A stretch of 64,000 bases of DNA from Cyanidioschyzon merolae (Eukaryota). The stretch is taken from NCBI GenBank assembly GCA_000091205.1, contig AP006486.2. One strand, given 5' to 3'. This document shows positions 4,601 to 59,575 of the stretch, one piece after another (positions within the stretch are counted from its first letter, which is position 1; every line of letters begins with the position of its first letter). Both the position numbers and the translations under genes were made by a program. A model generated the notes under the pieces. It did not search any database. It was not told the origin of the DNA and saw nothing but the letters and a program-made list of their open reading frames with translations.

Positions 4601-6283
4601 ATAAAGTCACACAGTAACGCCAGCTCAGTTCCAACTCGTCGATCCTACTGCGTTGCGGGCATTTTGCTATGTTCGGCCGTTTACGACACCGAAACTATGA
4701 TGAACGCGACCTGCGCCTAGCGCTGGAAGCGCGTCCCACGGCATCGTGGTACTGGTGAGGTGCATTCTCGACAGCGCGTTGAACAGCAGCACTTCTTTGA
4801 GTCGTTCAACTCAGGTTTGTTTCATCACTGCTGGAGCGTATAGCAGGAGATCGGCATTACGATGCAATGTAGTGTATATATTGTATACGATTTGAATGTA
4901 GGATATATGCTTTACGGAATTATGCACGGAGGACTACGTTCCTCCTTCAGGTCAGTCGTACCCCAGTACTCTGACAACTGGGGAACACTGAAAGGAGCAA
5001 TTATATGTGCACAGCGGTAAAAACCGATACTCTCACAACCTGCTTTGGTTCAGTGGTAGAAAACAACCCGTGGATCAACTTATAGGAAGCAAAAGCGACG
5101 ATTGTAGATAACACAAGCGTCACTGTGCCTCAATAGTTTGTTGGTATGGTACTGAAATCACTGGGATAACGTCACATTAAAAGTCCAATTTCATTCAGAG
5201 CCATCTTCCTCGGACGTCACTACGACAGAATTCCCCGAAAGACGCTATCGATATGAAGCACAGGGACATCGGTTTGTTCTGTCAGTCGATGAGACGTCTT
5301 TCCCACGAGACCGTCCCAGCATATATCGGTATTTGCCGAGAGGAAACCAATTGAATATAAGATCGAACTCGAATAGAAGGCTCATACCACAGCATTCCAT
5401 TTATCCAACCATTGATGACGCTTTCCACGTCTGACAACGTCCTTCTCTTGCACATCGTTGCCTTTCATCGTTCCCTTCGCATTCTTGTTTTTGCGAGTTC
5501 TATCTTCCGGAACTCCTTCTCCCTTGCTGAAAGGTCCTCACCTAAGTCCATTATGAGAGGCGTTCATTTTAAAGCAATAAAAAATCCGTGGGATAGAGAT
5601 GGACATGGAATTCGAGGATTCTGGAGGGCACCAATCGCCAGATTCGACAAAGAAACGAAAAAATTTTCTTCTCGCTGATCATCGAGTGAAGAGGAGCGAG
5701 TAACGAAGAAGAAGAGAGGAGATAGACGAGAATATTTGTTTGCCCGACGGAGCGACGACGAGACCATTGTGGCACAGAGGGCACGAGTTCTAGGAATTCT
5801 TGAATGCATGAATTCGACCAGCGGCAATATATGCAAGGAGTTCATGAACTGAGACTTCATGCCAGCCGACAAGATCAGGAGATGAGTGGGACTGAAGCCG
5901 CAACCCGAAAAGGTGACGCGACTGAATTCTATGGGACAGCCTCCCAGACTCCAATTGTACCTGGATAAACTGAAACCGATACCAGGTGGCCGCTCGAAAA
6001 AGGGAGACGTCTGCAGATCGATATTCGGTTACGCTACGAGATCGTGAAACGTTCTTCGGCTAACCGTACCCCTTGAAGGCTTTCTCTGAGCGTGTGTACA
6101 GTGCACTGTGACAGCCACCACGGTGCTGACGAGTGCACTAGGAAGCAGTTTACCAGCGAAGTTTTGGAGCAGAGCTTGACGTACGAGCTCACTCGAGAGC
6201 CAGCGTGCTCTGATTCGCTAGTGGCTCCTGGTGCACCTGGAGCGTAATATTGAATAGAGGCTTTTTAACGAAAGCGCCGGGTA

Positions 6284-7354
6284 ATGTTCACACAAGCGAA
6301 CTTGCCGCTTGTTCGTCGAGGGTTTGCGTTACGTAGCGAGATTCCGGAACAGTGTTGCCCAAAACGGAGGTTGATTGTTTCGAGACCCAGTCGGGCAGCT
6401 TGGAGTCGCAAGTCACTGTTAGTACAACAACGGTCTGGCGTTGGTACGCTGTCTGCGCGGAGTTCTGTCCAGTTTGATCCAACCGAAGACTATTACGCAG
6501 TTTTAGGAGTGGAAAGCGACGCAGACCTGGCAACCATCAAGCGAGCATATCGCCGACTAGCCTTGCAGAACCACCCTGACGCGAATAAGGATCCGCAGGC
6601 ACGCGAGAAGTTCATTCGCATTCTGCGTGCTTATGAAGTGCTATCGAATGAGGACGCCCGCAAGCAATATGACTTGCAACGTCGCTCGCCGGGTTCGGGG
6701 CCTTTCTGGGGCATCGGAGGTCCTGGCGCGCAGCGGCGACGTTCCAGCAGCACCGAGGAGTACCCCGAGGACTTGAATGATTCTTTTGGAGCTATTTTCT
6801 CGGATCTTATGGAGCAGCTCGGACGTCTTTGGCAGGAGGGCACAAAAGAGAATGGTATTTTTGCAGATTTTGTCGAATTTCTAGAGAGCCAGGGTGCCAA
6901 TTGGGGCTCCCTGCGGAATGAGGACCTCAATAGCGTTCTCACTTCGAGTGATGAAGACGTTCTCCAAGCAGAACTGGATGATGCTCGTTTCGTGCGTGAG
7001 CAATGTGAGCAGCGACTACGCTTGCTTCAAAATTCTCTAGAACTCACCGAGCGGCGACGCGCGGAGCAGGAGCAACGAGCGAAAGATGCACATCTAAGTG
7101 CAGGAACCCAGCAGGAGGCCCGGTCTAAGGTGCATGAGCTCTCGCTGGAGGCGCGGAGACTTCAGTCTCGTATTCGCCAGGTTCAGTCCCTGATTGCTCG
7201 CCAGCGCTCCCGCGAGGGGTTGCTGCAGTCCCGTTTGGATGCAATTCGTCGCGTACAGGAGGCCCGTGCTGCTTCTGAGGAGAAAGTTCGGAATCTGAGA
7301 AGCGAGGTGGAGGAGGAATTGGAGAAATTGAAAAGGGACTTGGGCAAGCTCTGA
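6284..7354 (+). CDS. J-domain (DnaJ/Hsp40) co-chaperone with a basic N-terminal presequence-like region and a C-terminal coiled coil
   Basis: J-domain DYYAVLGVESDADLATIKRAYRRLALQNHPDANKDPQAREKFIRILRAYEVLSNEDARKQYD with the HPD motif. The ATG at 6284 was verified in the sequence. The C-terminus is rich in E/R/Q/L heptad-like segments. Confidence 0.8.
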   Translation: MFTQANLPLVRRGFALRSEIPEQCCPKRRLIVSRPSRAAWSRKSLLVQQRSGVGTLSARSSVQFDPTEDYYAVLGVESDADLATIKRAYRRLALQNHPDANKDPQAREKFIRILRAYEVLSNEDARKQYDLQRRSPGSGPFWGIGGPGAQRRRSSSTEEYPEDLNDSFGAIFSDLMEQLGRLWQEGTKENGIFADFVEFLESQGANWGSLRNEDLNSVLTSSDEDVLQAELDDARFVREQCEQRLRLLQNSLELTERRRAEQEQRAKDAHLSAGTQQEARSKVHELSLEARRLQSRIRQVQSLIARQRSREGLLQSRLDAIRRVQEARAASEEKVRNLRSEVEEELEKLKRDLGKL

Positions 7355-8589: not shown

Positions 8590-9110
8590 CAACTCGCAAT
8601 GAGCGTACAAGGAATGCGCACGATGTTTTGTCGCAATACCGATACTTGAGTTCCGAACGTCGTATACACACCATGAGTTGGGATGTACACTTCAGAGGGT
8701 CGAGATGGAAAAGTGCCAGAGGAGTCCTGAGGAAATAGCAAAGTACGGACCGCTGACGGAGGAGCAAATGGAAAGGAGGGCAAAAGTGCGAGGACTTCTT
8801 GCACTGGTGAGTACAACGAATGATCGCAAGAAATGGATGGAGTTTGTGAATTGAGATTTTAATGCCGCTATCAATATCCGGAGATGTGCGGTGCTGGAGA
8901 GAAGACCTCCAGAGTCGACAAGACAGAACTTTGTTGGACACCCTCTCAAAGTGGAACTGCATGAGAAAAAATTGGAACCAGTAGGAGGTGGCCGGTCGAA
9001 TAAGAGTGGGAGGCGTCTGCACGACAGTTGGTGGCTTCTTGCCTAGGGCGGGCTTCTCGCCACTACTGTGCACTGCCGGCAGCAACGTTTTTCTTTTGAA
9101 AGGCATTTGT
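8590..9110 (+). pseudogene. 3' fragment of the TnpB/Fanzor-like element family (copy b), frameshifted and stop-containing
   Basis: Nucleotide and translated homology to 12530-13060. It encodes RTSYTHHELGCTLQ..KYGPLTEEQMERRAKVRGLLALVSTTND..FNAAINIRR..LETRPP..GGRS, interrupted by stops. It ends with the family-conserved tail ctagggcggg...cagcaacgtttttcttttgaaaggcatttgtt. Confidence 0.5.
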
Positions 9111-9140
9111 TGCTCGTGGGTGTGAGCGCCCGCAAGTACC

Positions 9141-9803
9141 ATGCGGGATAAGCTTGGCTTTCTCACGCCGTTCGGAATGAGCAGCAGTACGGTGTATCGC
9201 CTGCGTCCACCAGCACCTCAGACGACTCGGTTGGTACTGAAACAAGCCGACATCACTCGCGAAGCAGTTGATGCGATCGTCAATGCTGCGAACGAGCGCA
9301 TGCTAGGAGGTGGTGGCGTTGACGGCGCCATCCACCGAGCTGCTGGTAAAGAGCTACTGGAGGCTTGTAAGCGGGTACCCGAAAAGCGTCCTGGTGTGCG
9401 GTGTCCTACTGGTGAAGCGGTTCCAATAAAGATCACATGGCCTGTTTCCGAGGGGAACTTGCCTCAGGTGCGCTATATCATAAACACGGTGGGACCGATT
9501 TACCAGAACGCGGAGAAGAGTGCGCCACTTTTGCGCTCGGCGTATCGTAACTCCCTTCTCACAGCAATCGAGCACAACTGTCGATCAATTGCTTTTCCGA
9601 CGATATCTTGCGGCGTGTATGGATATCCTCTTCGAGAGGCCGCTCGAGTTGCACTCGAGGCAGTACAAGACACGCTCGGGGAATCACCGCAGCAGTCGTT
9701 GCAAGAGGTGCGTTTCTGTCTATTCAGTGAGGACGCCTTGAAGACGTGGACACTGGCTGCTGAGCAGCTTCAACTGGAACGCGTGAAAGAAGGCGCTTCA
9801 TAG
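9141..9803 (+). CDS. Macro-domain protein (MacroD/YmdB-like ADP-ribose or O-acetyl-ADP-ribose hydrolase)
   Basis: VDAIVNAANERMLGGGGVDGAIHRAAG and CRSIAFPTISCGVYGYP motifs typical of macro domains. ATG at 9141, 220 aa. Confidence 0.8.
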   Translation: MRDKLGFLTPFGMSSSTVYRLRPPAPQTTRLVLKQADITREAVDAIVNAANERMLGGGGVDGAIHRAAGKELLEACKRVPEKRPGVRCPTGEAVPIKITWPVSEGNLPQVRYIINTVGPIYQNAEKSAPLLRSAYRNSLLTAIEHNCRSIAFPTISCGVYGYPLREAARVALEAVQDTLGESPQQSLQEVRFCLFSEDALKTWTLAAEQLQLERVKEGAS

Positions 9804-11716
9804 AAGTATGCTCCAGACATGCGTCTTTATGACAGCGCTATCGATATACCTTGAGTCGCTGCCTCAACCGATATGCGCCTGGCATGCTCAAGCACTTGCA
9901 TAGATGCCAAGTGCGGAACCTGGTGTTTTCGTTGCTCCAAGTCGACTTAGGGTTCCGGTGGAAGGTGCTCCTTCTGTTGAAAAGCGGACGTACACTAGTA
10001 GCAGAATTCAAATCAGTTCCTTATTCCAGCGTCCGTGCGGCATGCATAACAAGCAAAGGGAATAAACGTATATCCGTGCTTGGGAACACTACCGTACCTA
10101 GTTTGTCTACGATCAATAATACTAACGAAACACTTAATGACTAGTGTGACGCATACCTCATCCGCCCAAGCGTAAGCCGCAGCGAAAACTACGCGTGTGC
10201 TGGAGTCATCGAGGGGTTTCGTGCCGGGCCCCAGCGACCCGTTGTATTACAGGGCGGTACTGCTATGGGCAGTAGTGTCGGCACCAGCGACAGAGCCTAG
10301 CGCAGGGGATCACTCTATGTGAGTTTCCGATCTAGGACACCTGATTTCCGCTGCAGTGCGTCGGTGAGAACACGCATGTGCTAATGCGACGTCGGACACG
10401 TGTCCTTCATCGATCCGTGTAGCGTCTCGCGAGGTGCACGCATCGCGCTCAGTGAGTGCACCTGGCAGAACTGGCACTCAACTGACACGACGCGCATGCC
10501 GCCGCCGTTGAAGGGAAACGCAATCTTGATCTCTAGCGTGTAGCTCTAACGTAACAGTTGTATTTTCGTTAATTTCATAGCCAAGTATAGTTTTCAGTTC
10601 GATTGTGTTTCAACCCTCAAGTAAAAATATTCGATTGATTTGTTGCAGTATATAACAGAAGCGTTTAAAGAGGTTTCTTTTTCAAAAAAAAGACTGAAAA
10701 AGGAAAGTTATGGAAAAGCAAGTCGATGATCCTGGAGCTCAGTGTCGCTGGTTGCCAGAAAAACAAAAAAAAACAGTGCCGAGTCCAGAAGAAAAGGAAG
10801 AGAAAAAGAGGCAAAAGGGGGATGCCCTACGTCGAAGGCTGCAAGAAAGACGACTTTACGACGAGATGATGGTGGAAGCCTGCCTTCTTCATTATATCGG
10901 AGATCCGTAGCAGGCAAACTTGCGAGACGCTATCAGAAACCGTGTCGACTCATACTCCAAGAGTATTGTCAAGGCGTCTTCAGGACTGATGCATGTAGCA
11001 ATGGAGGTGTATCGCGAAGTAACGGACATCGACACAGTCAAGATTCCGGAAGATTTTTTCAACAAGACATTTATTCGCCACCTTATCTTTGGTACAGGGG
11101 AAACGTCGAAGAGAAATGAGCGAGTGCATGCCCTCCACTGAAATCACCCCGAATACCGCTTCGATCGTACTCGGTTCAGGGGAGACGGGCATATTTACAC
11201 CTCCGGTGCGATGAAGTACCTCACGATCGTGAAGAAGCACTTGACGATGAACCTGGAACGTTTCATGACACGCGCCGTGTTTGTGCTGTGCCCGGGCCTC
11301 TCTCGCAAAGGAATATGGGCGGTTATCAATGGCATCACGAACGATAGTAAGAGCGAAAGAGAGATCGAATTCATCGGCAAGAAGCCGTCACGCAGGAGCA
11401 CAAATGAGGATTCCGTCATCCGTGCGGTCATAGAAGAGCACCGTGCAGTCTTGGGGTTGGCGAATCAAACAGACAAGATATCAGAGTTGAAAAAAGGATA
11501 GGGAAAGATACTATCGCCTCATCCTGCGCTATTTCGTGTTTCTGGACCGAGGGCTATAACGCAAGGCAGAGGTGCAGCTGAGTGAGGGAAAAAAATGAAG
11601 AGTGGGAGAGACGGAAGGCTGTCCTAATGGAGAAGCGCTTCAACGTGGTTCCAATGTGGAAAGTCAAGTCACATTTTGTGACTATCGACTCCAGCGTCCT
11701 TTACGGCATCACCTAG

Positions 11717-12226
11717 GAGATCAGTCCGGAGTTCATTGTCAGCAGGGAGAACTTCACCCGCGAAAACCTGGAGACATACTGGAAGAATATCTTCAATTTC
11801 AAACGTCTGAGAGTGAGCAAGCAAAAGTTGTTCACTGGGATGGTCGAAACCGATGGAGTAGCCATGTGTGTACACTATCGGCGGTTGAAGAAAGACCGTC
11901 CAGTTCCGCCCTCGGCTGCGCCCGTGACGAAGGATGAAGAAAAGGAGGAGGCGGATCCTGCAACGCAGGAGGTAGAGAATAACGACCTTGTCGTTGATGC
12001 GGCGAAGCATGAAGATGAGAAGGAGGCGGGTCCTGAGACGCAGAAAGTGCAGAATAACGACCTTGTCGTTGACGCGGACCCTGGGAATACGAATATCATA
12101 ACCATCGCTGTACCCAAACGTGCGGAAGATAGCACTGACGGTAACTTACGTCAGAAAGACATGCGTCTGTTGAGACTCTCGAGAGCGAGATACTATCGCG
12201 AATCCGGTATAATGATTCTAAGGTAG
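11717..12226 (+). CDS. Fanzor/TnpB-like ORF segment carrying the RuvC-I motif and a 25-aa in-frame tandem duplication
   Basis: Frame-2 open stretch: ...[21 protein letters not shown]...[55 protein letters not shown]...[11 protein letters not shown]. The track ORF 11813..12226 starts at a GTG. Confidence 0.5.
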
Positions 12227-12250
12227 AAAATCGAGACGAAGAATGCAGGA

Positions 12251-12990
12251 ATGAAGGATCACTTTGAGGCTTTGAGCAAGGTGATGGGCCGCGGAGCGGA
12301 CTGTAAAGCTTTTCGGAAATTCATGAAAGTTCGCGTTGCTCATTGGGATGCCTTGTGGGAGGAGTATGCCAAGCCCCGGTGGGTTCGTTTGCGTGTGAAT
12401 CTGTATTGCGGGAAGCAGCGTGCATTCGCGAACTTTTTCAATCAGTTGAGTGCCCTGAAGGAGGATGAAAATCAGAGGCTCGTAGTAGCGTATGGAGCAG
12501 GGCGATGGAAGACCCAAAAAGGGACTACGCCAGCTCCAACGACAAGAACGTACAAGGAGTGCGCCGGGCGTTTCGTCACGATACCTGTAGATGAGCTCCG
12601 AACATCGTATACACACCATGAACTGGGGTGTACACTTCAGTGGGTCGAGATGGAAAAGCCTCAGCGGAGCCCCAAGGCTATAGCAAAGTACGGACCGCTG
12701 ACGGAAGAGCAAATGGAAAGTAGGGCGAAAGTTCGTGGATTGCTTGCACTAGTAAGTACAACGAATGACGGCAAGAAACGTATGGAGTTTGTGTACCGAG
12801 CTTTTAACGCCGCTATCAATACACGGAGATATGCGGTGCTGGAGACGAGACCTCCAGTGTTGACACGAGAGAACTTTGTGAGACAACCGTTTAAAGTGAA
12901 ACTATATGAGAAACAATTGGAAGCAGTAGTTGGTGGCCGATCCAAAAAACTGGGACGCGTCTGCACTTTAGTTGGAGAAGTTTTGTCTAC
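12251..12990 (+). CDS. Fanzor/TnpB-like ORF segment holding the RuvC-II/zinc-finger/RuvC-III region. The natural stop is mutated (TAC at 12988-12990 where the other copies have TAG), so the ORF reads through to 13201.
   Basis: KQRAFANFFNQLS, LVVAYGAGRWKTQKG, FVTIPVDELRTSYTHHELGCTL, GLLALVSTTNDGKKRMEFVYRAFNAAINTRRYAVLETRPP and GGRSKK motifs. Copies b and d terminate with TAG at the homologous position. Confidence 0.5.
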
Positions 12991-13152
12991 GGCGGGTCGC
13001 TCGCCATTACTGTACACTGGCGGCAGCGTTTTTCTTTTGAAAGGCGTTTGTTATCGCTGCCGTGGCCAAAAGAAACTTTTAAAAGCGATCACGAGGCTTG
13101 ACCAAGACCGCACAAAGGCGACGGCTTGTGAGCAACAACAGAGGTGCTCTTC

Positions 13153-16100
13153 ATGTCCAATGTCGAGCGGCACGAGGAGCCAAACGGAGCGCAGACGCTG
13201 AAGACCTGGCGAACGCTGGAGATCGCCGGGCTGGAGGTAAAGTTCCCCACAGAATTGGAACCGCACAAGCCGCAGTTGATCATTATGAACCAAGTGATAA
13301 GATGTTTGCAGCGGGCGCAAAACGCGTGCATAGAATCACCTACGGGAACGGGCAAGTCGTTGGCGTTACTCTGTTCGGCGCTGGCGTGGCTCGAAAAAGA
13401 GAAAGAGCGCTCAGAGCCCAGTCTATTAGCGGTTGCAAATCACGCTGATATGCACTCCGAATTTAAACCCGAAACTGAAGAACCCGCCGACGAGAAGCAA
13501 TCAATCCCGAAATTGCTGCCTGAGAGCCGCTCTGCGGCGGATGACTGCGGCGTTCAAGATGTCGACGACGACGACGATGATGATGACTTTACCAGCCGAC
13601 CGGCTCCGCGAGTATCGCAGTTGAAAAGCGCTTCACAGAGATGGCGTCAGCAAGGTGCTGTGGCTGGTACGCGGCATCGATATCCACTTTGTGGAAAGCA
13701 GGTCCCACTGAACCCGCTCTGCAGTGTCGCAGTGCACCTGGAGGGTACGAACCTTGCCGTACAGCAGAGGCACCCACGGATTTTCTTCTGTTCGCGTACG
13801 CACGCTCAACTCTCCCAGGTCATCGCAGAGATGCGCCGCACTCCATACGCTGGTAAGATGCGTTCCACACTGCTGGCGTCGCGGAAGCACTACTGCGTAC
13901 ATGAGGATATTCAGAGAGCGCCATCGACTCTGCAAGCGGAAGCTTGTCAGCGAGCCGTCCAGCTCAGCTTCATGGAGGAGGCCAAGTCTGCAGCTGATGC
14001 ATCCAGCACAGTAGCTGACCCTCTGGCAGGAATATCGCCCTGCTTCTATCATCACAGCGCCGCGGTGAGGCGAACAGCGTGTTCGGCCCCGCAGCCTTTT
14101 CAAATGGAAGATCTCGTGCAAGTCGGTCGCCACTGGCATGGTTGTCCGTATTTTGCATCTCGCTTTCTCGTCCATGGTGACATTCAAACGGAACCAAATC
14201 AAGACTCTGTTGAAGGATCAAGCGTCCCCGACGAACGCTCGCACACGGGAAGCGCTTCGTCTACGGATGGTGCCGTAAGCGCCCGGGCGACTTCATGTAC
14301 AACGCGGACACGAACGATCATAGAGCCTGCTGATATCATCTTTTCTCCATATTCATACCTTGTGGATCCGCTCATTCGTCGACGCATGGATATCGATATC
14401 ACCGGTGCCGTATTGATAATCGACGAAGCTCACAACATAGAAGAGGTGTGCTTAGAAGCGGCATCAGTAGACGTAAGTCTATCACAGGTGCAACGGGTTC
14501 TCCTGCAGCTAGATCACTATCTGGGGGTTCAGATGCCGGAAACAGAGCCCACCCTGGAGACACTGATGGTCCGGCGTCCGTCGTTGAATGGTACGGCGTT
14601 ACTTCGAGTGTTCCGCCACTGGTTGCAGGCCCTAGCGTCCTTCATTGAGACACGAATACCGCTGTTAGATGACATTCACGGCATTCCCGAAAGTCATCGT
14701 CCGACGTCTGGCCCATGCACTGCAGCGCAACGTCTTCATGCACAGGCCACGGTTTTCTGGCAAGACGGTGCTCTCTTGCATGAGTTAGAGGTAGGGTTTT
14801 TCCAAAATTTTGACTTTGAGCAGTGGAACTGGTCCATGGGCCAGTTAAACCGTTTTCTTGATCGCTGGCGTCAGAAACAGCAGCGCACGGTGCCGGCTTT
14901 GGCTTCAGGAATGGCGGCCTCGACGGGCTTTGGAACGGAAACAGCGACCGAAGAACATGCTGAACAGTCGGTGCAGGCGCGTCCCACGACGGGCGATGAG
15001 CGTGCAGAAACCGAGCCCCGCTTCGCGTCTCTGTGCGGTGAAGTGCTCCATCTGCTAGAACGCTTCCACATTGCGCTGCAGTTTATTTACGGCGGACAGA
15101 GCTCGAAGGGCGCAGCTGCACCTGCGGAGGCTTCCCTGCTGCACGCCACAGACTATAGACTTGTACTGAGACGCGAGATGCGCCAGGGCACCTACGGAGG
15201 AGTTGAATTCAAACTTGGACTTTGGTGCATGAATCCCGCAATTGCTTTTCGTCATCTGCGAGACAATGCGCGATCCATCGTGCTTACTTCGGGAACACTA
15301 TCGCCAATGGAATCTTTTCGAAGTGAACTTGCGACCGATTTTCTGTGTCAGACAGAATGCGACCACATTATCGATCCAGAGAAACACGTTCGAGTTTGCG
15401 TTGTGGGAACCAGCAGCTCCGGCGACCGTCTAGAGGGTTCCTACCGAACGAGCGCTACCTGGTCATATCAGGATGCCATCGGCGAAGCGCTTGCGCACTG
15501 CAGCGCACAGATTCCCGATGGTGTGCTCTGTTTCATGCCCTGCTATCGAGTCTTGGAGTCTATGTTGCAGCGCTGGAGCAGCACCGGCGCGATCGAGCGG
15601 ATTTGTGGTGCTAAGCGTCTCTTCATCGAGCGCTCTTCTGGACAAGTTATAACAGAATATGCGACCGAGACTGCTGGCGGATACAGACTTCAGCGTCGTG
15701 GTTGGCGCGACTCCTGCTTTACCCCTGCAAGGGAATATGGGACGGATGCATCTGTGGCGGCTCTCGGGGAACGGCCGAGCTCATTACGTGCTGCGTCTTC
15801 CAGTATCCTGTCTCGGGACCGGTCCAAGCGGAAACGACGCGGTGCTGGTCGAGCGTACACCTCCGCGTCAGCGTATGCAAACCGCGATGCTTTGCAGGTC
15901 TACTACGATGCGGTGGATGCAGCGCGGACTGAGACCACTGCGAGCGCACCGGTACCAGCTGCCAACGCGCGCTGTCGAATAACCGCTGATCACAAAAACG
16001 GGGCCATTATGCTGGCTGTTTGCCGGGGCAAGATCAGCGAAGGATTGAACTTTGCCGATCAGTACGGTCGCGCAGTCATTATGGTCGGTATTCCGTACCC

Positions 16101-16464
16101 CAATCTGACGGACACGTTTGTCCAGCTGAAGATGCGCTACAATGACGAGCGCAGCGGTGCAGTTTCTGGTGCTCCCATCAATGCTACGAGCACGAGTCGT
16201 CTGAGTGGCAAACAATGGTATGTTCTACAAGCGCATCGTACCGTGAACCAAGCTCTGGGAAGGTGCATTCGCAACCCTAAGGACTATGCGTCGATCATTC
16301 TTCTCGATGTTCGCTATCGCGATACGCGAACAGTGAACTGCATGTGTCGGTGGATCAGGGACCCGCTCCGCGATTATATTGCCAGGCACGGCCAGACGCT
16401 CACCCTAGAGGCAGCAGTCCGTGAAGTAGCAGAATTTTTCTTCCAGAAATATGACGCGAAATAG
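13153..16464 (+). CDS. Rad3/XPD-family Fe-S DEAH-box DNA helicase (DDX11/Chl1- or FANCJ/RTEL1-like)
   Basis: N-terminal VKFPTELEPHKPQLIIMNQV...ESPTGTGKSLALLCSALAW, an acidic D8 insertion after motif I, Fe-S Cys residues (HYCVHE ... GCPYFASR), DEAH box VLIIDEAHNIEE and C-terminal HD2 motifs GKISEGLNF...MVGIPYP...QALGRCIRNPKDYASIILLDVRY. The first ATG is at 13153 (the track start at 13144 is GTG). Confidence 0.8.
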   Translation: MSNVERHEEPNGAQTLKTWRTLEIAGLEVKFPTELEPHKPQLIIMNQVIRCLQRAQNACIESPTGTGKSLALLCSALAWLEKEKERSEPSLLAVANHADMHSEFKPETEEPADEKQSIPKLLPESRSAADDCGVQDVDDDDDDDDFTSRPAPRVSQLKSASQRWRQQGAVAGTRHRYPLCGKQVPLNPLCSVAVHLEGTNLAVQQRHPRIFFCSRTHAQLSQVIAEMRRTPYAGKMRSTLLASRKHYCVHEDIQRAPSTLQAEACQRAVQLSFMEEAKSAADASSTVADPLAGISPCFYHHSAAVRRTACSAPQPFQMEDLVQVGRHWHGCPYFASRFLVHGDIQTEPNQDSVEGSSVPDERSHTGSASSTDGAVSARATSCTTRTRTIIEPADIIFSPYSYLVDPLIRRRMDIDITGAVLIIDEAHNIEEVCLEAASVDVSLSQVQRVLLQLDHYLGVQMPETEPTLETLMVRRPSLNGTALLRVFRHWLQALASFIETRIPLLDDIHGIPESHRPTSGPCTAAQRLHAQATVFWQDGALLHELEVGFFQNFDFEQWNWSMGQLNRFLDRWRQKQQRTVPALASGMAASTGFGTETATEEHAEQSVQARPTTGDERAETEPRFASLCGEVLHLLERFHIALQFIYGGQSSKGAAAPAEASLLHATDYRLVLRREMRQGTYGGVEFKLGLWCMNPAIAFRHLRDNARSIVLTSGTLSPMESFRSELATDFLCQTECDHIIDPEKHVRVCVVGTSSSGDRLEGSYRTSATWSYQDAIGEALAHCSAQIPDGVLCFMPCYRVLESMLQRWSSTGAIERICGAKRLFIERSSGQVITEYATETAGGYRLQRRGWRDSCFTPAREYGTDASVAALGERPSSLRAASSSILSRDRSKRKRRGAGRAYTSASAYANRDALQVYYDAVDAARTETTASAPVPAANARCRITADHKNGAIMLAVCRGKISEGLNFADQYGRAVIMVGIPYPNLTDTFVQLKMRYNDERSGAVSGAPINATSTSRLSGKQWYVLQAHRTVNQALGRCIRNPKDYASIILLDVRYRDTRTVNCMCRWIRDPLRDYIARHGQTLTLEAAVREVAEFFFQKYDAK

Positions 16465-28003: not shown

Positions 28004-28326
28004 CTTCCGGCGCTGATGGTGTCGTGTTCCCAGTAAGCAAGGTGAAAGGCAATGCAGTTCAGAGTTGAAACTTTTTCTCTACAATTCCGTCAGTGCAAAG
28101 CGAATGCTGTCCAGTGTTCAGCCTTGATGTTAGATATCCACACGCGTGACGCCTAGTCCTGATGGAGAGTCCACAGACAGTCAGAGCAGCGAACAATGTT
28201 TGCGATTTGCGAGGGTTCATGAGTACCCATGCCCAGACGCCTCCTAGTCATTTTTGACCGGTCGCCTGTTATCGGTTCCTGTGCTTATCCAGGTACGCTT
28301 CGGGCTTGAGAGGCTGTACCATAATG

Positions 28327-28551
28327 TTAGGTCGTCTTCAGCACCACACATCGTCTAATGTTGATAGCAGCGTTGAAGACTCGGTGGACAAAGTCCGTGC
28401 GTTTATTGCCGCGGCTTGGACTCATCCATTTAAGGATTGTTAGAACTCGTTCCTTCAGTGCGACTACAGTCTCGTCATCGTGCTGTCGGACAGGCGCCAA
28501 TTCCCGTGTATCTCCCCTTTTCTTGGTCCTCTTCGCGCGATGGTAGGCCAC
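28327..28551 (-). pseudogene. Short fragment of the TnpB/Fanzor-like family (copy c), holding the RuvC-III-like region and truncated by a stop
   Basis: Translates to ...ERVLTILKWMSPSRGNKRTDFVHRVFNAAINIRRCVVLKTT*, homologous to GLLALVSTTNDGKKRMEFVYRAFNAAINTRRYAVLETR of copy 1. Confidence 0.45.
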
Positions 28552-28843
28552 GAGAGGATTTTTTCATTTTTTGTCGAAACCGGGGATGACGGCTCTCCTG
28601 CATCCAGACGTCCATGTCTATACATTTCGCTTGGATTTTTAATTTCTCCAAATGAACGCACTTCGAAAACGTCTGCTATAAACTGCGACAAAGCATTTGA
28701 TGACATGCACCTGGATGCGGCGTAAAATTGAGGTGAAAGACAACAAGCAAAGTGTCCATAAAAGAAGGACAGCGTGTTTATCGTGCTGAACAGCTACGTT
28801 GCCTTTCCCAACCAGGATGATGAAACGTCTTCCACACGATCGC

Positions 28844-41068: not shown

Positions 41069-42136
41069 CTAAAAGAGCGGACGATATCCACTGGCAAGCA
41101 ATTCGATACCAGTGTCGTTCGGCCTTCATGATAACCGTTGGAAAGGAGGATACGATTTCCGTATCTTCCAACGTTTGCCTTCTATGCCGAAGTGCCCGTG
41201 TGCCGGACGAGTATGCTGGGCCAGTGCTGCATGCTGCCCCCAGGGGTGGGTGCAGTTGCGCCACCTGAACAACTCGCCCGCAATGCAGTTGATTCTCGGA
41301 TTCAGGGCAGTTCGGGTGTGTCTCGAAGTCGCCCAGGTTGCAGTTATCTCCTAGTACACCGCATCGCGCTGCCGCATGCAGTAGGTCTGTCTGCGCAGTT
41401 TGCAGGCGCCCAGAATGATGTAGAGTGCCGACCCCGTGTCGGATGAACGACGCCTCGAGCCGACATGCCCATTGGTATGGCAACGCTGCTCTGTCTTTGT
41501 ATTGCATCCGCACTTGCGGTATAAGCGCTACAACGGGTGCAGCACTGCATGCACTCGGCGCGAGAGATACCATAACAAACGACCAGTGTATCCTAAAGAA
41601 AGTATGGGCCATGGAACCTGAAGGTACAGTGCGTCATGATGAATACGTTCCCGAATGCCTATATCCCTCATTTGATCTTGGGTATACGTTCAATGTAAAC
41701 CTTTAGTCGAACAAAAAATGGAAACGCTGCATAGGTGAATGAATAACGCAACATCCGCTCAAACCGTGCTACTGGCCGGCCAGTCTCCTCCGGAACGCTC
41801 ACATCATTCTATCAAGAGAATAACGATTGTGAACACACACTCGCCATCGACGGGCTTCCAGTCTGGCTCAGCATGGTCCCGTTACCATAACCCAATCGTT
41901 GCGTCTGTGCTAGTTTTCAACTTTCACTTGTTCAGCGCGGTAGTTTTCTCAAAAAAGTGCGCCGTTTCCGCTACGCCGAGCAGTTGCGTCACTCTCAGAG
42001 AAAAACGGTCGCAAGTGTAGGCGAGGCGTTTGTAACTGGACCACGTGTCCGGGGAGTGTCTGGCACCTGGTCTGTGGGGCGACTCCCTCAAAAGCTACAG
42101 CGGAGTCAGCATCAAGACTGGTTGCGTGTCTCGAGG

Positions 42137-50607: not shown

Positions 50608-53600
50608 CTTGAGGGCGTCGAATCCCCAATCACATCATGCAGTTAGGTATTTGGCTGTTTTGTGCGTCGGTATTCTCGGTTCACGCATCATGGAGCATGC
50701 GGGTGACTGGAGGCTCGTGATACATTCGCATGTGTGCGCATGAAGACGTGTGGGCATTCGGACTTGCAGGATCGACGCAGACTCGCGTGCGTTGGTGGTA
50801 GCGGCTTTCATGGGATGCAGCATCATCGTATGGTGCCAAGCGAGCCATCTTCGTTTACATGAAGCGATCGTTGCATGGATGGATCGACAGGTGTCTGATA
50901 TTGGAAGCGGGCGACGAGCGGGCGCTCAATGTCCCGCAGGACTCCCGCTCGATGTCGATCTGTAGCTGGTGGATATCTCGCAGCCGCTAGCGTCCTGGGA
51001 GCTACAGACAGCGAGTATGGAGCTCGTGATCGGCTCGAGGGCAGGCGCGCCTGCCTCCGGTCGTGTCTAGCGGTCGCTGGGCGTATTCCATTCAAGTTCA
51101 GCGGAAACAGTGCCTCGGGGGTTGTTCTCCAAAGCTCTCTGAGTAAAAAAATCATCCATGGTCGTGCGTTCTTGATCGAATGGAATGGTGTTTGCACTGA
51201 TTCGTGATCTATGAAAGGCGTGTCCAGAAAACAGGACACGTCACAGGGCTGTGAACGGTTCCCACGTGAAAATACACAAGTTTCCGGGTATTGGAAAGTG
51301 CTGCGCAGACAGTCACCGTGATTCGTGAACGTCTCCAGAGAAGCATCTCGTTCGTGTGTCCGGGGCGAGAAGCTGCTTGGGCGCGCGACAGCATTTACGC
51401 TGACGCATGCGTGGCCAGAAGCGTCGATGTTCTTGGCTGAAATGCTCGGCACGAGTCGGGCTCAAGTCTGGCTCCCTCGATGCCAGGTCGAACGTTATGC
51501 GCAGAACGGGAAAATCTGGAACACCTGGACCAGCACGCCACGTTTGCCTTTCTTGAGGGTATTCAACGAAGGCGTGCATCCTGTAACTTAGAGAATGCCT
51601 GACGGCTTTCTTTACGATGCCATTGCTAGCTTGCGAATATCTGATCGAACTTGTACAAGTAAGGCATTCCATCGTCGGCAAATGGATGACCCATCGTTTG
51701 CGGCGTCCGCATACTCCATATCGTTCGCTCAGAACGGAACCAGTATAAATCTATTCACAGGATTGTGTGCTCGTCCATCGGAGCCAATCCATTGCTTTTC
51801 TAAGAACTACCACGGAATAAGCCATATGATGTGAAGTTTCCATATAGTAGAGACGACCAGTGATGCAGATACGAATGGACAAGTTAAGAAACACGCTAGT
51901 AGTCGCACTGGTCGCACGTTGAGCAACACACGATCGATTCCGTACTGAAACGCGAACAGTTTGGGCACGACAGACGGGTATTCATCTCGCTCGATGAGAT
52001 TCTATTCCGCAGAAATCGTACATCTGCGTGTGGATACTCAACGAGCGGCAATGCAATGTTTGCAAAGAAGACACAGGCGAGCTTCGCGACTCTACCAGGC
52101 CAAGCGGCGATGTCGACGGGTGTTCGCATACAAACCTTCAAACAAGAGGAGCGTTTCGCACTCGATGCGTCACCTAAGCAGTCTTCGTGCATTCGCCTTC
52201 CCACATTCTTCCGTCCTGCTCTGAGATAACGTCGCTTTCCATCAATCTACACGGTAACGGAGATCGTAGCTGAGACTGTTGGTAAGCGAAACTTGATGCC
52301 AGCCTATGCTCAGTGGTTTCATCCATCCGGGCGCGTCTTCTCTATCGTCAAACGCCATTTTTATGTTCGACGATCAATAGACGAGTCATTCGAATCTGGG
52401 ACCCCAAACTTCTTCGACAAGTCGTTCTCTAGCTCCACCAGCCCGCAACTGCGCAGTTGCTTCTCTGCTCGTGCGTGCTTGGGGGTGAAAGGCCAGCTCT
52501 GGTCCACGGGCGTGCTCCCGATGGAGGAAATGACGAAAAAATGCGAGGAGCTGTAGATATACACCCAGAAGAGGCGAGTCTCGGTGGCAAAGTCCACCCA
52601 GTGCGCACGGGCCGTGGCAAAAACGAACGGATATACCGTATACCGACCGCGTTCCTGCCAAACCGCCAAGTAAACGAGAAGAAGAAGAAACCTCCGCATC
52701 ATGAAGAGAAAGATCCTCCTAAAGACAGTACGAGCATTGAGAGAGGGCAAAAAGTGTGAGGCCAGAGGGATTCGTCAAATACCTCTGTCGAGGACGCTCT
52801 ACGAAAATCCATCGACGGGGAACGTTTCCCGGAAATGTGATACAGCAAGGCACCAGTGATCGTAGAGTCTTGTCCTGGAGGAATGCTCACGCAGCGCCTC
52901 TCGACTTGAAGCACCTGGTAATGCCATTGTCCATGCGCGTTCTGAACGCCGGGCTTCTAGCTGCCTGCGCTCCTCTGGATTTTTTCAATCAAACCGTTGT
53001 GCAATTTCTGATGCTGGGGATAGATATTGTGAGACGGACTGAGACGCTCAGGGCTCGATATGATCCCGAGTTGGACGTGGCAGACGCCACGGGACAAACC
53101 AGCGAATAGTAGGTCGGCACCAGGACCCGTGCCAATGCCCCGAACCCTGTCCTGGACAGAGGCGATGCTGCATACGCTTCATTCAGAGAGTACATGCGGG
53201 TCCAGATTTTTCGACCAGACGATCTTTGCTACAAGGACCGGAGAGCATGCTGGCGTCCTCAACAACCGATTCCGTTGCTCCATATCACGAGGCGGTCACT
53301 CGCCAACCTCTTCATTGAGATGAAGAACAACAGCACCGATGCGTCGCGTCGTTTGCTCGAGACCTCTGACGCGGCACGTTTCGGAGAGCGCAACAGCTTC
53401 ACGTTTGTCCCTTTGATGGACGGGTACAACGCGTGCAGGGATCGGTGCTGCACGATGCCCATTGATGGCTTCGGAGCGAGATTCACACATCTCGAGCGCA
53501 AACTGGCGCTGAAGCGGGCATCCAGGGAGAGCGTAAAGCAGCGACACATCCACGATGTGGTGTCCGGAAGCATGACCGAGCGTCAGCCTGCCACGAAATC

Positions 53601-54841
53601 GAAAGCGAGTAACTTGCCGAGCTGGGACTCTACCAGAAACCATGTGCACAAGTCCTTTTTTCTGCGCAGAGACTTGAACGCCTCAGTGAACGCCAGAAAC
53701 TATTTTGTGCTTCCGGATTGATCATCGAGTTTGCATTTTTGGCGGTCATCATGTCATTCACCAGGGTGGTACTTGGATGAAACGCCGAACCCCTTCGATG
53801 AACTCATCGGTCGCCACGAGCGACAGACTTCCATCCCGGCCTGGAACGAGGTACGCGTACATGATGGAACGGCACGGCGAACGCTGGAAATCCAGCACAC
53901 CCGGATCTCCGTCTCTGGACACTGGAAAAGGCCCCGCATGCCAATGGGTGCACTTTCATGGCGCTCCACGATTCACCATTACCGAGTACGTAAGTAAAGT
54001 ACTGACATCCCACTTTACTTTTTTCGAAATCCTCCGCTGCACGAAAAACATTGCTTGTCATATGAAACCTCCAACGGCTTCTGCCTCTGATGCCCATATG
54101 CCAGGAGTTTCTCTGCTTGCTCGATGATTTTCCTCTAGCTTGCCGACATCATACCTCCATAGATGCAATCCTGTGTCGAAATCAACACAGTCGCCGCATC
54201 CCATGTCATCAAGCGGGTGCGTCTTGTCGCTGCACGACGCTGTGCTGGCGGTACGCCTCGAACACATACGACCCGACTCTGGTTTGCAAGGCGCTGGCGG
54301 CCGTCGCCAGGTCCACTCGTGCATTGCCAGTCGCCAACAGAGACAGCAAGTTCTCGTTCGGAGCGCAAAGCTCGATCGGCGACCTCTGCTGGCTATCATA
54401 TCAGATGCTGAGGACACAAAGTCTAGTGCGCATGCCCTTCATCGGAAGTATTCCGCACGCTATAATGACCGGCATGCTCCCAGCATCTGCCATGGACCTC
54501 GCAAGCATCGAGAGCGCTCCGGGAGCCGTTATCGGGTTTTTGACTTTTCCGAAGCGCACTTCGCGCTTGTATCATTCCAACGATGTACCTGCGTGTGTCC
54601 TACCTGTAGGTAGCACAGCCTATGTTTCGCAGCTGCAGTTCCTTACCGAGCAGCACCCAAGTTCCAGGAGACGTTGCAGGCAAAACAAAGGGTGAGATCG
54701 CGGGCGCTCCAGGGGCAGCGCGTCTGCGATCGAGTCGACAATCGTCAGGGAGCGGCTCGGTGTCGGCATACGCCCTGATGCAAACACGCTTTTCGTTTGC
54801 TTTCGGGAACTGTGGACGTTTTCATCTACACTGTGTCGACG

Positions 54842-56617: not shown

Positions 56618-57523
56618 CTAGCGGGCCAAAATCCCCTCTAATGGACCTTGCTGCGCATTCGATTGCGCAACGGCAACCATGAATGCCAGAACAACATCTA
56701 CTTGCACATCCAATGGAGCAACGGTTTCCATTGGACAGTGCAGGAAAAAAGTCTGCCACAGATGATGCCCGTTCTCCGCAAGACCCTCAAATGCGGAGAG
56801 ATAAAATAAGTAATTACATAAGAAACGACCCGCGTCGTCATTGACACGCACTGTCCAGTTCGTTCGACCCCACTCGTTCAGCAGGGACTCGGTGCGTTCA
56901 CAGAGAGAGGCCAACGCTTCCCCGTCAAGTTCGTAGCGTGCACCGAGCTGAGCACCACGGACGATTGGAATCGGCGTTGTCGGTTGCCAGCCTCTTTCAT
57001 CGGGGAATCGAAAAAGCGCCTCATTCACAGCACTGCGCTCGACGAGGAAACCATCCGCGGATGCGTCAACTCCGAGATGCAAGAAACAGACCGTCCTGTT
57101 TCTGCCATCTGACGAGATATTTGGTTTTTGTCGCATTTGGAGGCACTGGGTTTTCATTTCCGCAAGCGTCTCGTGAGCCGCTGCTGCCGACACCTCGAGG
57201 ATCCGCAGATCGACGATTCGCACAAGCCGCTCGTGCAACATCTGAACGCGACCTGGATCCTGCAGGATTTCTCGTAGTCGCAGCACGACACGCTCCGTCG
57301 GGTTGTCTTCCATAAGCGCAAACCGGCCAAATCCAGTGATGTAAAAGTATGTGACTGCTTTCGATAGCGATGGAGGCGCTCTTGGCAGGTCAACCACCTG
57401 CAGTTCGTTTTCATGCTCAGCGTTCGTCACTTGAGCTGACGAAACATACGTTGAATGAGCACCGCCCAGGTGGCCTGTTTCTTCGTGCGCTCCCACAGGT
57501 TTCGAAGTGCTCGCTGCGCGCAT
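56618..57523 (-). CDS. Pyroglutamyl peptidase I (peptidase C15)-like protein. The ORF stays open to a GTG at 57550.
   Basis: YITGFGRF (cf. the vTGFepF motif), HLGVDASADGFLVERSAVNEALFRFPDERGWQP, a catalytic-Cys context DDAGRFLCNY and His context FFLHCP. ATG at 57521-57523 on the minus strand. Confidence 0.7.
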   Translation of the reverse strand: MRAASTSKPVGAHEETGHLGGAHSTYVSSAQVTNAEHENELQVVDLPRAPPSLSKAVTYFYITGFGRFALMEDNPTERVVLRLREILQDPGRVQMLHERLVRIVDLRILEVSAAAAHETLAEMKTQCLQMRQKPNISSDGRNRTVCFLHLGVDASADGFLVERSAVNEALFRFPDERGWQPTTPIPIVRGAQLGARYELDGEALASLCERTESLLNEWGRTNWTVRVNDDAGRFLCNYLFYLSAFEGLAENGHHLWQTFFLHCPMETVAPLDVQVDVVLAFMVAVAQSNAQQGPLEGILAR

Positions 57524-57560
57524 CCCAGTGAGCCACGCTCTCCCCTGCACCGCACACCAA

Positions 57561-58350
57561 CAACGAACGCCTCAAAAGACAAAAGTTGCTGCAGGCAGTG
57601 TACAGTAGTGCGGAGAAACCCGCCCTAGACAACTCGTCGCCAACTGACTTGCAGACGCCTCCTGGTCTTTTCGGACCGGCCACCTACAACTGATTCCATC
57701 TTTTTCTCATATAATTCAACTTTTAGAAGTTGTCCCACAAAGTTCGCTCGTGTCGACGCTGGAGGTCTCGTCTCCAGCATCGCACTTTTCCTTATATGGA
57801 TTGCTGCGTTACAGCCTCGGTTCATAAACTCCATTCGTTTATTGCCGCTGGTGGAAGTCACCATTTTAAGGAGTCCTTGAAGTCGTGCCTTCCGTTCCAT
57901 TTCATTTGCTGTCACCTCACCGTACTTTTCTATATCTTCTAGGATTTGCTGGCTCTTCCCCGTCTCGGCCGTCTGAATTGTACGCCCCAGTTCATCCCAT
58001 AATATTTTAAAATCAAGGCACTGCTTTATGCATTTAGCTGAGGACATTCCCGGAGGAGATAGCACTTGCGCAGAAAGGACGACAGGTGCCCCGGTAGTGT
58101 TGTATGCTGAGCGCTTCAGCGATTCGCTCCATGCATCGATCGATACGTTTCACGATACAAAACACTCCCTCAATGGGGTAGACCAACGGAAACCACTAAA
58201 GAATGAAAACCAGCTCTATCCAGACAGAATCGGCAAGATCTCGAACGCAACAGGAATGATGAAATGCCAGTTTGTCCCGTAGAAGGACGTCGTTAGACGT
58301 CAGGGAAAAGGGACCCTTAATTCGACAACGTGGTTGAACCTGTTGTACGA
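57561..58350 (-). pseudogene. Diverged, stop-interrupted 3' portion of the TnpB/Fanzor-like family (copy d)
   Basis: Minus-strand translation ...FYGTN..PVAFEILPILSG*..FSGFRWSTPLRECF..*..SSAKCIKQC..KYGEVTANEMERKARLQGLLKMVTSTSGNKRMEFMNRGCNAAIHIRK..LETRPP..GGRSEKTRRRLQVSWRRVV*. A conserved tail follows the TAG (57561-57624). Confidence 0.5.
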
Positions 58351-59575
58351 GGCTGCTCTTCAAGTTCGATCTTATACACAACGGACTCTGATTGCTCGTG
58401 TACGCTCAGAGCGTTTCGTACGAGGCAAGTCGCATCGACTAAAAAAACAAACCGACGTCCTTGTGCTTCATATCCATAGTGACTTTCCAGGAGCTTTGTT
58501 GTAGTTGCTGTTTCTGTCGAAGATGGCCGTGTTTGGACTAGGACTTTTTTGCGACGATATGTCTCAGTGTTTTTGGGACCGCACGAACAGACTTCTGCGA
58601 AACAGAGACGCCGTTTGCGGCTACGATCATCGCTTTTCTTTGCTTCCCGTAAGGTGATCGACGAGTAGTTTTAAACCATGGACCGCAACCAGTCTCTAAG
58701 AAGATCGATTTTCGGTACGTAACTCAAATCCTGCTTCCTTCCCGTGCTCCTCGACCATCAGAGTACTGTGATATAACTGACGTGAAGGATGGATGCAGAC
58801 CTCGTTGCACTTTTCAGCAAAGAATATATCTTGTAGGCCATTCGTCTACGATATATGCGGCACGTTTCATCGATATTTCGATCCCTTACTATACACTGCG
58901 ACAAAGCATTCGAATACTCTCTCCGCGGGGACGAAACAGCATGTAGTAGAATGGCGATCCATCCAGCGGTGCGAATCGCACCGTCCACGAGTTGCGTTTA
59001 ACGTCCAGAGATCGAAAACTTGAAGAGTGTCTCTTTTGAGCATGCACCATAGAGGCAATGGAGAAGAATGTGTGCTTGCACGTATGCACTACCTCATGAT
59101 ATGGGTTCTATGTCGAACGCTTATTCGGATGCGTTGTGAATCACCATGATTTCGATGATGTACCGAGTTCCAGCGCAAAATATTCGATAGAATCGCTCTG
59201 GGAATCCGACCGAAAACCCTGACACTACACATGAACTCGTATGCCCCGGTCGCTGCACTTCGAATCCAGATGCTGTACACCAAAAAATAAAAGTGAAAAG
59301 AAATAGAAAGGTAGGCGCAGAACGAACACTTCAACAGACCACCTCCAGTTCGATACGACTACTGGTTTGCACCGACGCGCCTGTACGTCGCGTCACAGGT
59401 CGCAACGGATGACGCTTTGGGGTGGGCGTTCGCGCGTACCGCTCCCTAGAGCAAGAACGCGAATAAAACAGCTCCGAGTGTGAGGAGCTTCGGCTCTACC
59501 CGATAGACGCTGTGGTGCGAGATACGACTGCGCGATAGGGAACCTCCGGCGCCGGTGGAACGACGACGCTCGGGA

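Follow-up and report, generated by a model that had tools for sequence, protein, structure and literature searches.

The right ends of Fanzor1 repeats in Cyanidioschyzon merolae are associated with the start codons of co-oriented host genes

Why should the remains of a nuclease-encoding repeat lie, time after time, directly ahead of a host gene and on the same strand? The question is raised by a stretch of 64,000 nucleotides (nt) of Cyanidioschyzon merolae 10D chromosome 4 (NCBI GenBank assembly GCA_000091205.1, contig AP006486.2), called the window below, a eukaryotic sequence poor in introns, with ~54% G+C, genes on either strand and 98.7-99.2% identity to hot-spring metagenome contigs. The repeats in the window are copies and relics of the CMe-1A Fanzor1 element of this organism, the "WSV repeat". 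The original prediction, made from the letters of the window, held that four of four Fanzor-like copies sit immediately upstream of, and co-oriented with, a host gene, and it offered either promoter-targeted insertion or adoption of the element's 3' end as the promoter or 5' untranslated region (5'UTR) of the gene as the reason. We find that the 3' ends of the element are associated with the start codons of co-oriented host genes both in the window and outside it, and we regard this association as established with high confidence.

The association was measured at 80 metagenome loci carrying near-full-length relatives of the element, whose 3' ends were located by tail homology; collapsing sites with a common downstream flank left 51 unique 3' ends, 44 with a downstream gene and 41 of these outside the window. 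Genes were called with a codon-usage model of our own, trained on 131 long open reading frames (ORFs), which on the window recovered 15 Pfam-supported or plausible long ORFs and missed the uL15 gene. The null expectation comes from permutations of position and orientation, confined to these loci and run with repeats collapsed. Within 50 nt of the element 3' end there is a co-oriented ATG at 8 of the 44 sites (6/41 outside the window; null 1.8%), within 100 nt at 14 (11/41; null 3.6%, p=1.4e-7 for the non-window sites) and within 500 nt at 28 (25/41; null 15%, p=2e-11, again for the non-window sites), so that the enrichment of 3' ends within 500 bp upstream of co-oriented genes that the original prediction had anticipated is borne out on metagenome sites. 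Genes on the opposite strand, whose stop codon faces the element 3' end, occur at the null rate (1/44 within 100 nt and 7/44 within 500 nt). Where a clean downstream gene lies within 1.5 kb, it is co-oriented in 30 of 40 cases (p=8e-5; 27/37 and p=4e-4 outside the window; null 0.44), and the downstream genes across the unique sites are all different genes.

Do the two ends of the element behave alike? A start codon falls within 100 nt of the 3' end at 14/44 sites and of the 5' end at 2/28 (Fisher p=0.019), and within 500 nt the 5' end shows a weak enrichment (9/28 vs 15%, p=0.03). At the 26 sites for which both neighbours are known, the 3' gap is shorter than the 5' gap in 22, with medians of 103 vs 530 nt. 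These sites comprise 13 divergent, 6 tandem co-oriented, 5 tandem anti-oriented and 2 convergent intergenic regions, a departure from the 1:2:1 expectation (chi-square p=0.007), and in 11 of the 13 divergent regions the co-oriented neighbour is the closer of the two (p=0.02). Because divergent regions are enriched, convergent regions depleted and tandem regions unbiased, much of the co-orientation comes down to a preference for promoter-containing regions combined with avoidance of 3'-3' regions.

Within the window, where coordinates were checked by self-BLAST and by direct reading of the sequence, six copies bear a 3' end and all six are co-oriented with the downstream gene (0.5^6 = 0.016). 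The claimed co-orientation stands, as do the coordinates and host genes given for copies 1, b and d, but the count of four does not, having missed copy A and a relic at 53050-53712 as well as a solo 5' module. Copy 1 (9997..13061, +) is a full-length, 3.06-kb, dead CMe-1A Fanzor1. It consists of a 5' module at 9997-10483, a variant common to ~8-11 of the other 44 upstream regions compared, of ORF remnants at ~10710-12990 and of a structured non-coding right end at 12991-13061, and from its end at 13061 it is 91 nt to the helicase ATG at 13153. As had been predicted, its stop codon is lost and the ORF reads into the helicase 5' region: at 12988-12990 TAC stands in place of the native TAG, and with the frame shifted by the loss of 1 nt further upstream the ORF extends to 13201. 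Of the RuvC motifs, D and E are kept and the third has changed from NRD to YRA (YRAFNAAIN). Copy 1 is a dead pseudogene, and its lost stop is plain decay. Its ORF also contains a 75-nt tandem duplication at 11928-12077, an acidic repeat with two units here, four in the intact relative P0001 and more in the intact relative P0005.

The other copies are shorter. Copy b (8601..~9117, +) is tail-only, comprising the last ~510 nt of the element at 82% identity to 12546-13052; it retains the native TAG at 9044-9046, a hairpin at 9047-9061 and the terminal hairpin at 9084-9107, and its end lies ~25 nt before the macro-domain ATG at 9141. The arrangement formed by copy b, the macro gene and copy 1 recurs at L033, L063 and L084, where two copies in the same orientation are likewise separated by 3-4 kb and one intervening host gene. 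Copy d (57553..58911, -) fuses a Fanzor 3' region (57553-57995) to a stretch that we call module X (58222-58897); it keeps its native TAG at 57627-57625 and ends, in a divergent intergenic region, ~30 nt from the peptidase ATG at 57523 (-). Copy A (4835..6058, +), which is ORF-less and was recognised by tblastx and blastn to copy 1 and reference elements and by repeat depth among loci, joins the non-Fanzor module X (4835-5505, ~700 nt) to a diverged Fanzor 3' region (~5560-6058) and ends 225 nt before the DnaJ ATG at 6284 (+), within the divergent DEAD-DnaJ intergenic region. Between copies A and d, module X is 66% identical over ~700 nt. Fragment c (28190..28714, -) belongs to a diverged, ORF-less subfamily shared with copy A (66% identity over 505 nt, E=5e-56, 5560-6058 vs 28190-28659). 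It had rightly been placed upstream of and co-oriented with the ABCC gene, but the extent then assigned to it (28327-28551) and the gap of ~320 bp give way to a 3' boundary at 28190 and a distance of 186 nt to the ABCC ATG at 28003 (-). The solo 5' module (41072..41719, -; ~650 nt) corresponds to the published repeat TE-N2_CMe and has no Fanzor tail. Finally, the distant Fanzor-like relic (53050..53712, +; found by tblastn at E=6e-17 and by tblastx) retains the RuvC half of the protein, 28% identical to P0001 residues 519-738, and its next co-oriented gene begins ~1,100 nt away at 54842; it suggests a second, older family in the same genome.

The element itself has been described before. Bao and Jurka (2013) list CMe-1A as a Fanzor1 element of ~3 kb, with ~150 copies in C. 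merolae that are ~80% identical to the consensus, without terminal inverted repeats or target-site duplications, and with a 5' 635 bp that also occurs as a separate repeat, TE-N2_CMe (PMC3627910). Nozaki et al. (2007) reported a 3.2-kb repeat that contains a WSV486-like ORF and whose 253 copies amount to 5% of the genome, and described the repeats as "distributed randomly" and transcribed (PMC1955436). The repeats studied here agree with this element in host, in size (~3 kb), in copy identity and in having a solo 5' module, and about one full-length element in three carries the ~650-nt 5' module at its start. Between sites, copies or tails are 74-88% identical; since no two sites exceed 88%, the copies that we observe represent an old, filtered population.

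Is the encoded protein a Fanzor? Conceptual translation of the copy 1 region 10400-13260 gives 755 residues with at least six stops and one frameshift, and a database search with this protein returned 31 close clusters of 49-78% identity, all from JGI metagenomes, together with a further relative, P0032, at 27% identity. P0032 carries Pfam PF07282 (Cas12f1-like TNB domain / OrfB_Zn_ribbon) at 34.4 bits vs a cutoff of 26.3, and hhalign aligns the CMe family profile with it end to end (99.7% probability, E=3e-26). The intact relatives P0001, P0002 and P0005 keep DPGNTN, VDEFRTS and NRDFNAAINI in their C-terminal half, which is the split RuvC D...E...D of a Fanzor1/TnpB-like nuclease. Direct tests were less successful: PF07282 reached only E=0.23 against the CMe family, a PDB profile search gave no match, phmmer with P0032 gave no meaningful match, and an AlphaFold model of P0001 from a shallow 16-sequence alignment was unusable, with a pLDDT confidence score of 32. 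Given these failures, membership in the TnpB/Fanzor superfamily rests on the transitive match through P0032 and on the literature. On both counts the Fanzor-like identity first proposed from the window is upheld, the family being CMe-1A Fanzor1 (PMC3627910) and its profile aligning with P0032. Between E and the last D, where P0032 reads CNGCGC...CRSTGC, the CMe family aligns as HHELGCTL...EKC...ALVSTT, with two cysteines left, and the C4 zinc finger of the family appears from this alignment to be degenerate.

What, then, is the conserved sequence that lies so close to host genes? An alignment of 45-51 independent copies shows a constant order: C-terminal coding sequence, a conserved TAG, a GC hairpin GGCG..CGCC with a variable interior, the almost invariant linker CCACTACTGTACAC, a palindromic GC stretch and a terminal hairpin of 10-12 bp. 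Beyond the terminal hairpin follow ~12 semi-conserved nt (TGTTGnnGGnG), after which similarity ends, and the non-coding right end after the TAG measures ~75 nt. In copy 1 the right end (12991..13061, +), delineated by alignment, folds, pairing in two variants and analogy with SpuFz1, begins with the hairpin GGCGGG..CTCGCC at 12991-13005, continues through the linker ATTACTGTACAC and closes with the terminal hairpin at 13027-13046 and an outer stem GGCAGCG/CGCTGCC (13022-13028 / 13055-13061). The terminal hairpin exists in two versions, GGCGUCGUUC...GAACGGCGUU and AACGUUUUUC-UUUU-GAAAGGCGUU, both of which pair over 10-12 positions and which differ by one G-C to U-A double change and several wobble-compatible single changes; in shuffled controls 9/10 pairs were reached in 1.7% of trials. 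RNAalifold predicted almost nothing on a MAFFT alignment of 45 tails, in which MAFFT sets the hairpin variants out of register, and pairing was judged by folding sequences one at a time and by counting pairs in register. A search of 8300-13300 against Rfam returned no match. The most fitting interpretation of the conserved tail is C-terminal coding sequence followed by the right end, both belonging to the element itself, and not host regulatory sequence. The ~75-nt right end would be expected to serve as ωRNA scaffold and as transposon end, by analogy with SpuFz1 (PMC10432273).

Some of the history of these insertions can be read from related genomes. The block DEAD-DnaJ-macro-Rad3 helicase-unknown-ABCC is kept in Cyanidiococcus yangmingshanensis (GCA_026122185.1) and in a third species, at 65-73% coding identity to the window. 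In the syntenic block of both relatives, blastn with the window and tblastn with an intact Fanzor protein found no Fanzor homology, and the three insertions are therefore confined to the C. merolae lineage. A search for empty sites in the relatives met intergenic DNA that cannot be aligned at all among the three species, and recovered no pre-insertion site, target sequence or duplication. Without the element, the macro-helicase intergenic DNA amounts to ~290 nt in C. merolae (9804-9996 plus 13062-13152); in the relatives the same interval is 1.4-2.1 kb (L087 10631-12076, L088 10664-12736). With intergenic regions of 0.5-2 kb in the relatives, a gap of 25-90 nt between element and gene is not trivial.

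How did the 3' ends come to lie where they do? We favour, at a probability of roughly 0.55, a two-part account of insertion in 5' intergenic DNA and subsequent long-term filtering. Elements would first insert in open 5' intergenic DNA. Filtering would then remove those arrangements in which sense transcription from the right end runs antisense into a convergent gene, as well as inverted elements that part a gene from its promoter. Outward transcription from the right end would be required for an ωRNA with a flanking guide, and we infer that it is this transcription, together with selection, that acts as the filter. At genes separated from the element by only tens of nt, the right end would contain the 5'UTR of the host gene and, probably, its core promoter, or else the gene would be read through. 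The ATG is 14 nt past the terminal hairpin for KTI12, and 14-45 nt past it across KTI12, macro, peptidase and the genes at L027 and L086; for such nearest genes, with the ATG only a few tens of nt away, geometry leaves no 5' flank other than element sequence, and from this we infer that they use it as promoter or 5'UTR. Targeted insertion and promoter/5'UTR adoption, the two possibilities offered at the outset, are not separable from sequence alone.

Several observations weigh against this two-part account or limit what it can claim. Tandem regions show no orientation bias (6 co-oriented vs 5 anti-oriented), and degraded copies are co-oriented in 22/28 cases vs 8/12 for copies with an open ORF, a difference in the expected direction that is not significant (p=0.45). 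The 5' boundary is fuzzy, with several 5' variants and graded truncations, and 5' gaps may be overestimated; the home-made codon-usage caller misses small genes; and the sample covers ~40 of ~250 sites, from metagenome contigs 98-99% identical to the reference. Pairing in the hairpins is degraded in copies b and d. A comparison of window positions 779-22788 with the orthologous strain contig L076 (~1.1% overall divergence, and accordingly of low power) gives 0.3-1.1% for host coding sequence, 0.6-0.7% for other intergenic DNA, 2.47% for the dead ORF of copy 1, 2.13% for the tail-only copy b and 1.44% for the copy 1 tail: the tails diverge like the dead ORF, and copy b does so above the intergenic rate (p=7e-4). 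As a separate observation from the strain comparison, element DNA (1.4-2.5%) evolves faster than intergenic DNA, which points either to constraint on ordinary intergenic DNA or to a higher rate of mutation or conversion in the repeats.

A serious rival to filtering, though an unlikely one, is orientation-specific targeting, in which single-strand-DNA (HUH/rolling-circle) or other machinery acting in trans would integrate the element strand-specifically near transcription starts. The element lacks terminal inverted repeats and target-site duplications (PMC3627910) and has subterminal and terminal 3' hairpins; its 3' end is sharp, while its 5' end shows graded truncations and several variants; and copies form head-to-tail arrays. 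Three independent junctions of this kind (L013:1025, L071:5386 (=L026) and L081:4459 (=L065)) place the next element, whose 5' terminus reads GGGCTCGATGTA..., 15-22 nt past the hairpin. These are traits of HUH-type elements, and a fixed orientation at the target is common to all known Rep-mobilised transposons (PMC10288648), which would suit an enrichment seen specifically at the 3' end and at gene starts. Set against this are the absence of any conserved target motif beyond ~12 nt past the hairpin, the lack of orientation bias in tandem regions, and termini other than the canonical Helitron 5'-TC...CTRR-3', the 3' end here reading ...GGCGTTTGTTGnnGGnG. Nor was a transposase ORF, Rep/HUH or other, seen by eye among ORF translations of the longer 5' regions examined, although no genome-wide Rep search was made. 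The only two fully open ORFs in the sample, of 780 and 759 codons (L002 9715-12416 and L032, element end 3088), have a convergent gene ahead of them, 481 and 705 nt away respectively, unlike most degraded copies. All copies are moreover old, at most 88% identical between sites, and an insertion preference is not directly readable from them.

Less likely again is domestication, in which the right end would have been recruited as promoter or 5'UTR and kept by selection, so that tail-only relics persist. The tail-only and ORF-less relics b, d, A and c do precede co-oriented genes by 25-225 nt, the core promoter must overlap the element wherever only a few tens of nt separate it from the ATG, and the ~290 nt of other intergenic DNA around copy 1 is short beside the 1.4-2.1 kb of the relatives. 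It is the strain comparison that makes domestication less likely: tails evolving like a dead ORF, and faster than other intergenic DNA, argue against strong selection on them, as far as sequence divergence between two strains can tell, and no purifying selection on the tails was detected between the window and L076, a comparison of low power. The degraded pairing in copies b and d points the same way, and outside the window truncated or partial copies at L063:14198 and L084:3344 face convergent genes. Proximity alone, besides, would shield a tail from deletion without any function. The interpretation offered in the original prediction is supported in part.

A bolder proposal, which we hold to be distinctly doubtful, is that right ends are portable outward-firing units, each supplying an ωRNA whose guide comes from the adjacent 5'UTR or first codons and, at the same time, the promoter or leader of the gene. 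If this were true, ~100 host genes would be coupled to, or RNA-guided by, a transposon nuclease system, and the retention, with some ORFs still open, of a 3-kb repeat that occupies 5% of one of the most streamlined eukaryotic genomes would have an explanation.

Could the pattern simply be chance, or the geometry of a compact genome in which repeats always adjoin genes, half of them co-oriented, so that four of four is meaningless? By itself 4/4 gives p=0.06, any orientation within a divergent region is upstream of and co-oriented with one neighbour, and divergent regions supply 13 of the 19 co-oriented cases with both flanks known. The permutations nevertheless exclude chance as the cause of the placement, an ATG within 100 nt being expected at 3.6% of sites and observed at 27-32% (p=1e-7 to 2e-10); gene 3' ends show no excess, and with intergenic regions of 0.5-2 kb the genome is not tightly packed. 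We consider this explanation very improbable.

Least credible of all is a gene-model artefact, with ORFs stretched to an upstream in-frame ATG, or spurious ORFs or element cargo taken for genes: the first ATG was taken for every ORF, L086 has a second in-frame ATG 39 nt further downstream and the Cyanidiococcus macro model begins 11 codons later, but conserved starts, distinct downstream genes, early Pfam domains and the placement statistics exclude it.

The host genes bear this out. The helicase start codon keeps its position in two related species, and the macro start is identical in the 10D annotation. Of the 10 nearest co-oriented genes downstream that were scanned (gaps of 6-86 nt), 9 have Pfam domains, a set comprising WD40, KTI12, Tim17, COPI_assoc, TPT, an SF1 helicase, eIF5B and two methyltransferases, and several domains begin close to the predicted start (KTI12 at residue 1, TPT at 15, COPI_assoc at 16, Tim17 at 20). 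The same genes stand in the same order, element-free, in the relatives and so are not cargo. In the window, the DnaJ gene (6284..7354, +) has Pfam DnaJ and is syntenic in the relatives; the macro-domain gene (9141..9803, +) has Pfam Macro and is 100% identical to C. merolae 10D XP_005535483.1; the Rad3/XPD-family helicase gene (13153..16464, +) is supported by Pfam DEAD_2 and Helicase_C_2 and by synteny; and the pyroglutamyl-peptidase-like gene (56618..57523, -) by a weak Pfam Peptidase_C15 match (24.2 bits vs a cutoff of 22.7) and its codon-usage score. The ABCC gene was assigned from the Pfam families of syntenic ABCC orthologues. No transfer RNA genes were found within the window.

Two apparent regularities among these genes were rejected. 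The DnaJ and ABCC genes share the motif AGCGCCGGNNNATG just before their ATGs (an identical AGCGCCGG at 6273-6286 and 28001-28014 (-), with the ATG 3 nt later), which could have been a sign that copies A and c reach the ATG; the motif recurs among the other 88 loci only at the orthologous DnaJ site of L076, no similarity extends over the 200 nt that precede the two ATGs (z=0.24), and we treat it as chance. At L001/L054, a Rad3-family helicase gene (12101-15529) has a Fanzor copy 454 nt upstream on the same strand. Fanzor plus Rad3 helicase is rejected as a conserved unit, the L001 helicase being a different paralogue, 27-41% identical to that of the window, and the recurrence may be coincidence, ~100 genes being so placed.

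Two repeats of other kinds were seen in the window. Four to five 43-nt tandem repeats occupy 20560-20774, in the convergent intergenic region before ABCC, and the array differs in length in L076. A direct repeat of at least 535 nt and ~99% identity (34715-35250+ and 40062-40597+), with its copies 5,347 nt apart, surrounds the gene at 38352-39737.

What does the association mean? It contradicts the 2007 statement that the repeats are distributed randomly, and it offers a testable handle on natural guide targets, on transcription leaving the element and on the replacement of a promoter by a transposon end. If survivorship is all that lies behind it, it is still a clean example of selection shaping the landscape of an old repeat family. 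The role of Fanzor elements in their native hosts is, to our knowledge, almost unknown. C. merolae has a finished, essentially intron-free genome of 16.5 Mb and can be engineered by homologous recombination, and RNA sequencing and chromatin immunoprecipitation data exist for it, the latter including published H3K27me3 profiles (PMC5405695).

Among known systems, the nearest is CMe-1A / the WSV repeat as published, which shares the organism, the size of 3-3.2 kb, the ~80% copy identity, the lack of terminal inverted repeats, the solo 5' module of ~635-650 nt and a single Fanzor1/TnpB-like ORF. The element itself is identical, and its placement is what differs. The element and its Fanzor nature are known; the papers searched describe neither the tie between its 3' ends and host start codons nor the structured right end nor the ORF-less derivatives, and literature searches turned up no account of where Fanzor elements lie relative to genes. 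Spu-1/SpuFz1 of Spizellomyces punctatus (Saito et al. 2023; PMC10432273) likewise has a single Fanzor1 ORF and is accompanied by many ORF-less "ghost" ωRNA loci, which copies A, d and c resemble. Inverted repeats of 30 nt and a TA/CA target are found in Spu-1 and not in CMe-1A; the zinc-finger cysteines of CMe-1A appear degenerate, and its ωRNA is a prediction; and the portion of that account consulted mentions no association of Spu-1 with host gene starts.

The bacterial TnpB/IS200-IS605 OMEGA elements offer a parallel for the right end, in that their ωRNA overlaps the 3' end of the nuclease gene and the right-end hairpin and takes its guide from the flank, so that transcription exits the element. 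They differ from CMe-1A, for which no transposase is known, in being moved by Y1 HUH TnpA, and their insertion bias follows a tetra- or pentanucleotide target and the replication strand and not gene starts. TldR proteins are bacterial, nuclease-dead, RNA-guided repressors derived from TnpB; they have lost their catalytic residues, adjoin the gene they serve and carry guides that match host gene 5' regions. The open CMe-1A ORFs, in contrast, keep their D/E/D motifs, and no regulation is evident here. In placement there is a likeness to promoter-proximal transposons: Tf1 of S. pombe, P elements at heat-shock promoters, Mutator elements and miniature inverted-repeat transposable elements, and bat Helitrons are likewise found in gene 5' flanks and in few 3'-3' regions, and are likewise a potential source of promoter or 5'UTR sequence. 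Those biases, however, are known from new insertions and are mostly independent of orientation, whereas the CMe-1A copies are ancient, and their association with host genes is specific to one end, at distances from the ATG (tens of nucleotides) that are unusually short.

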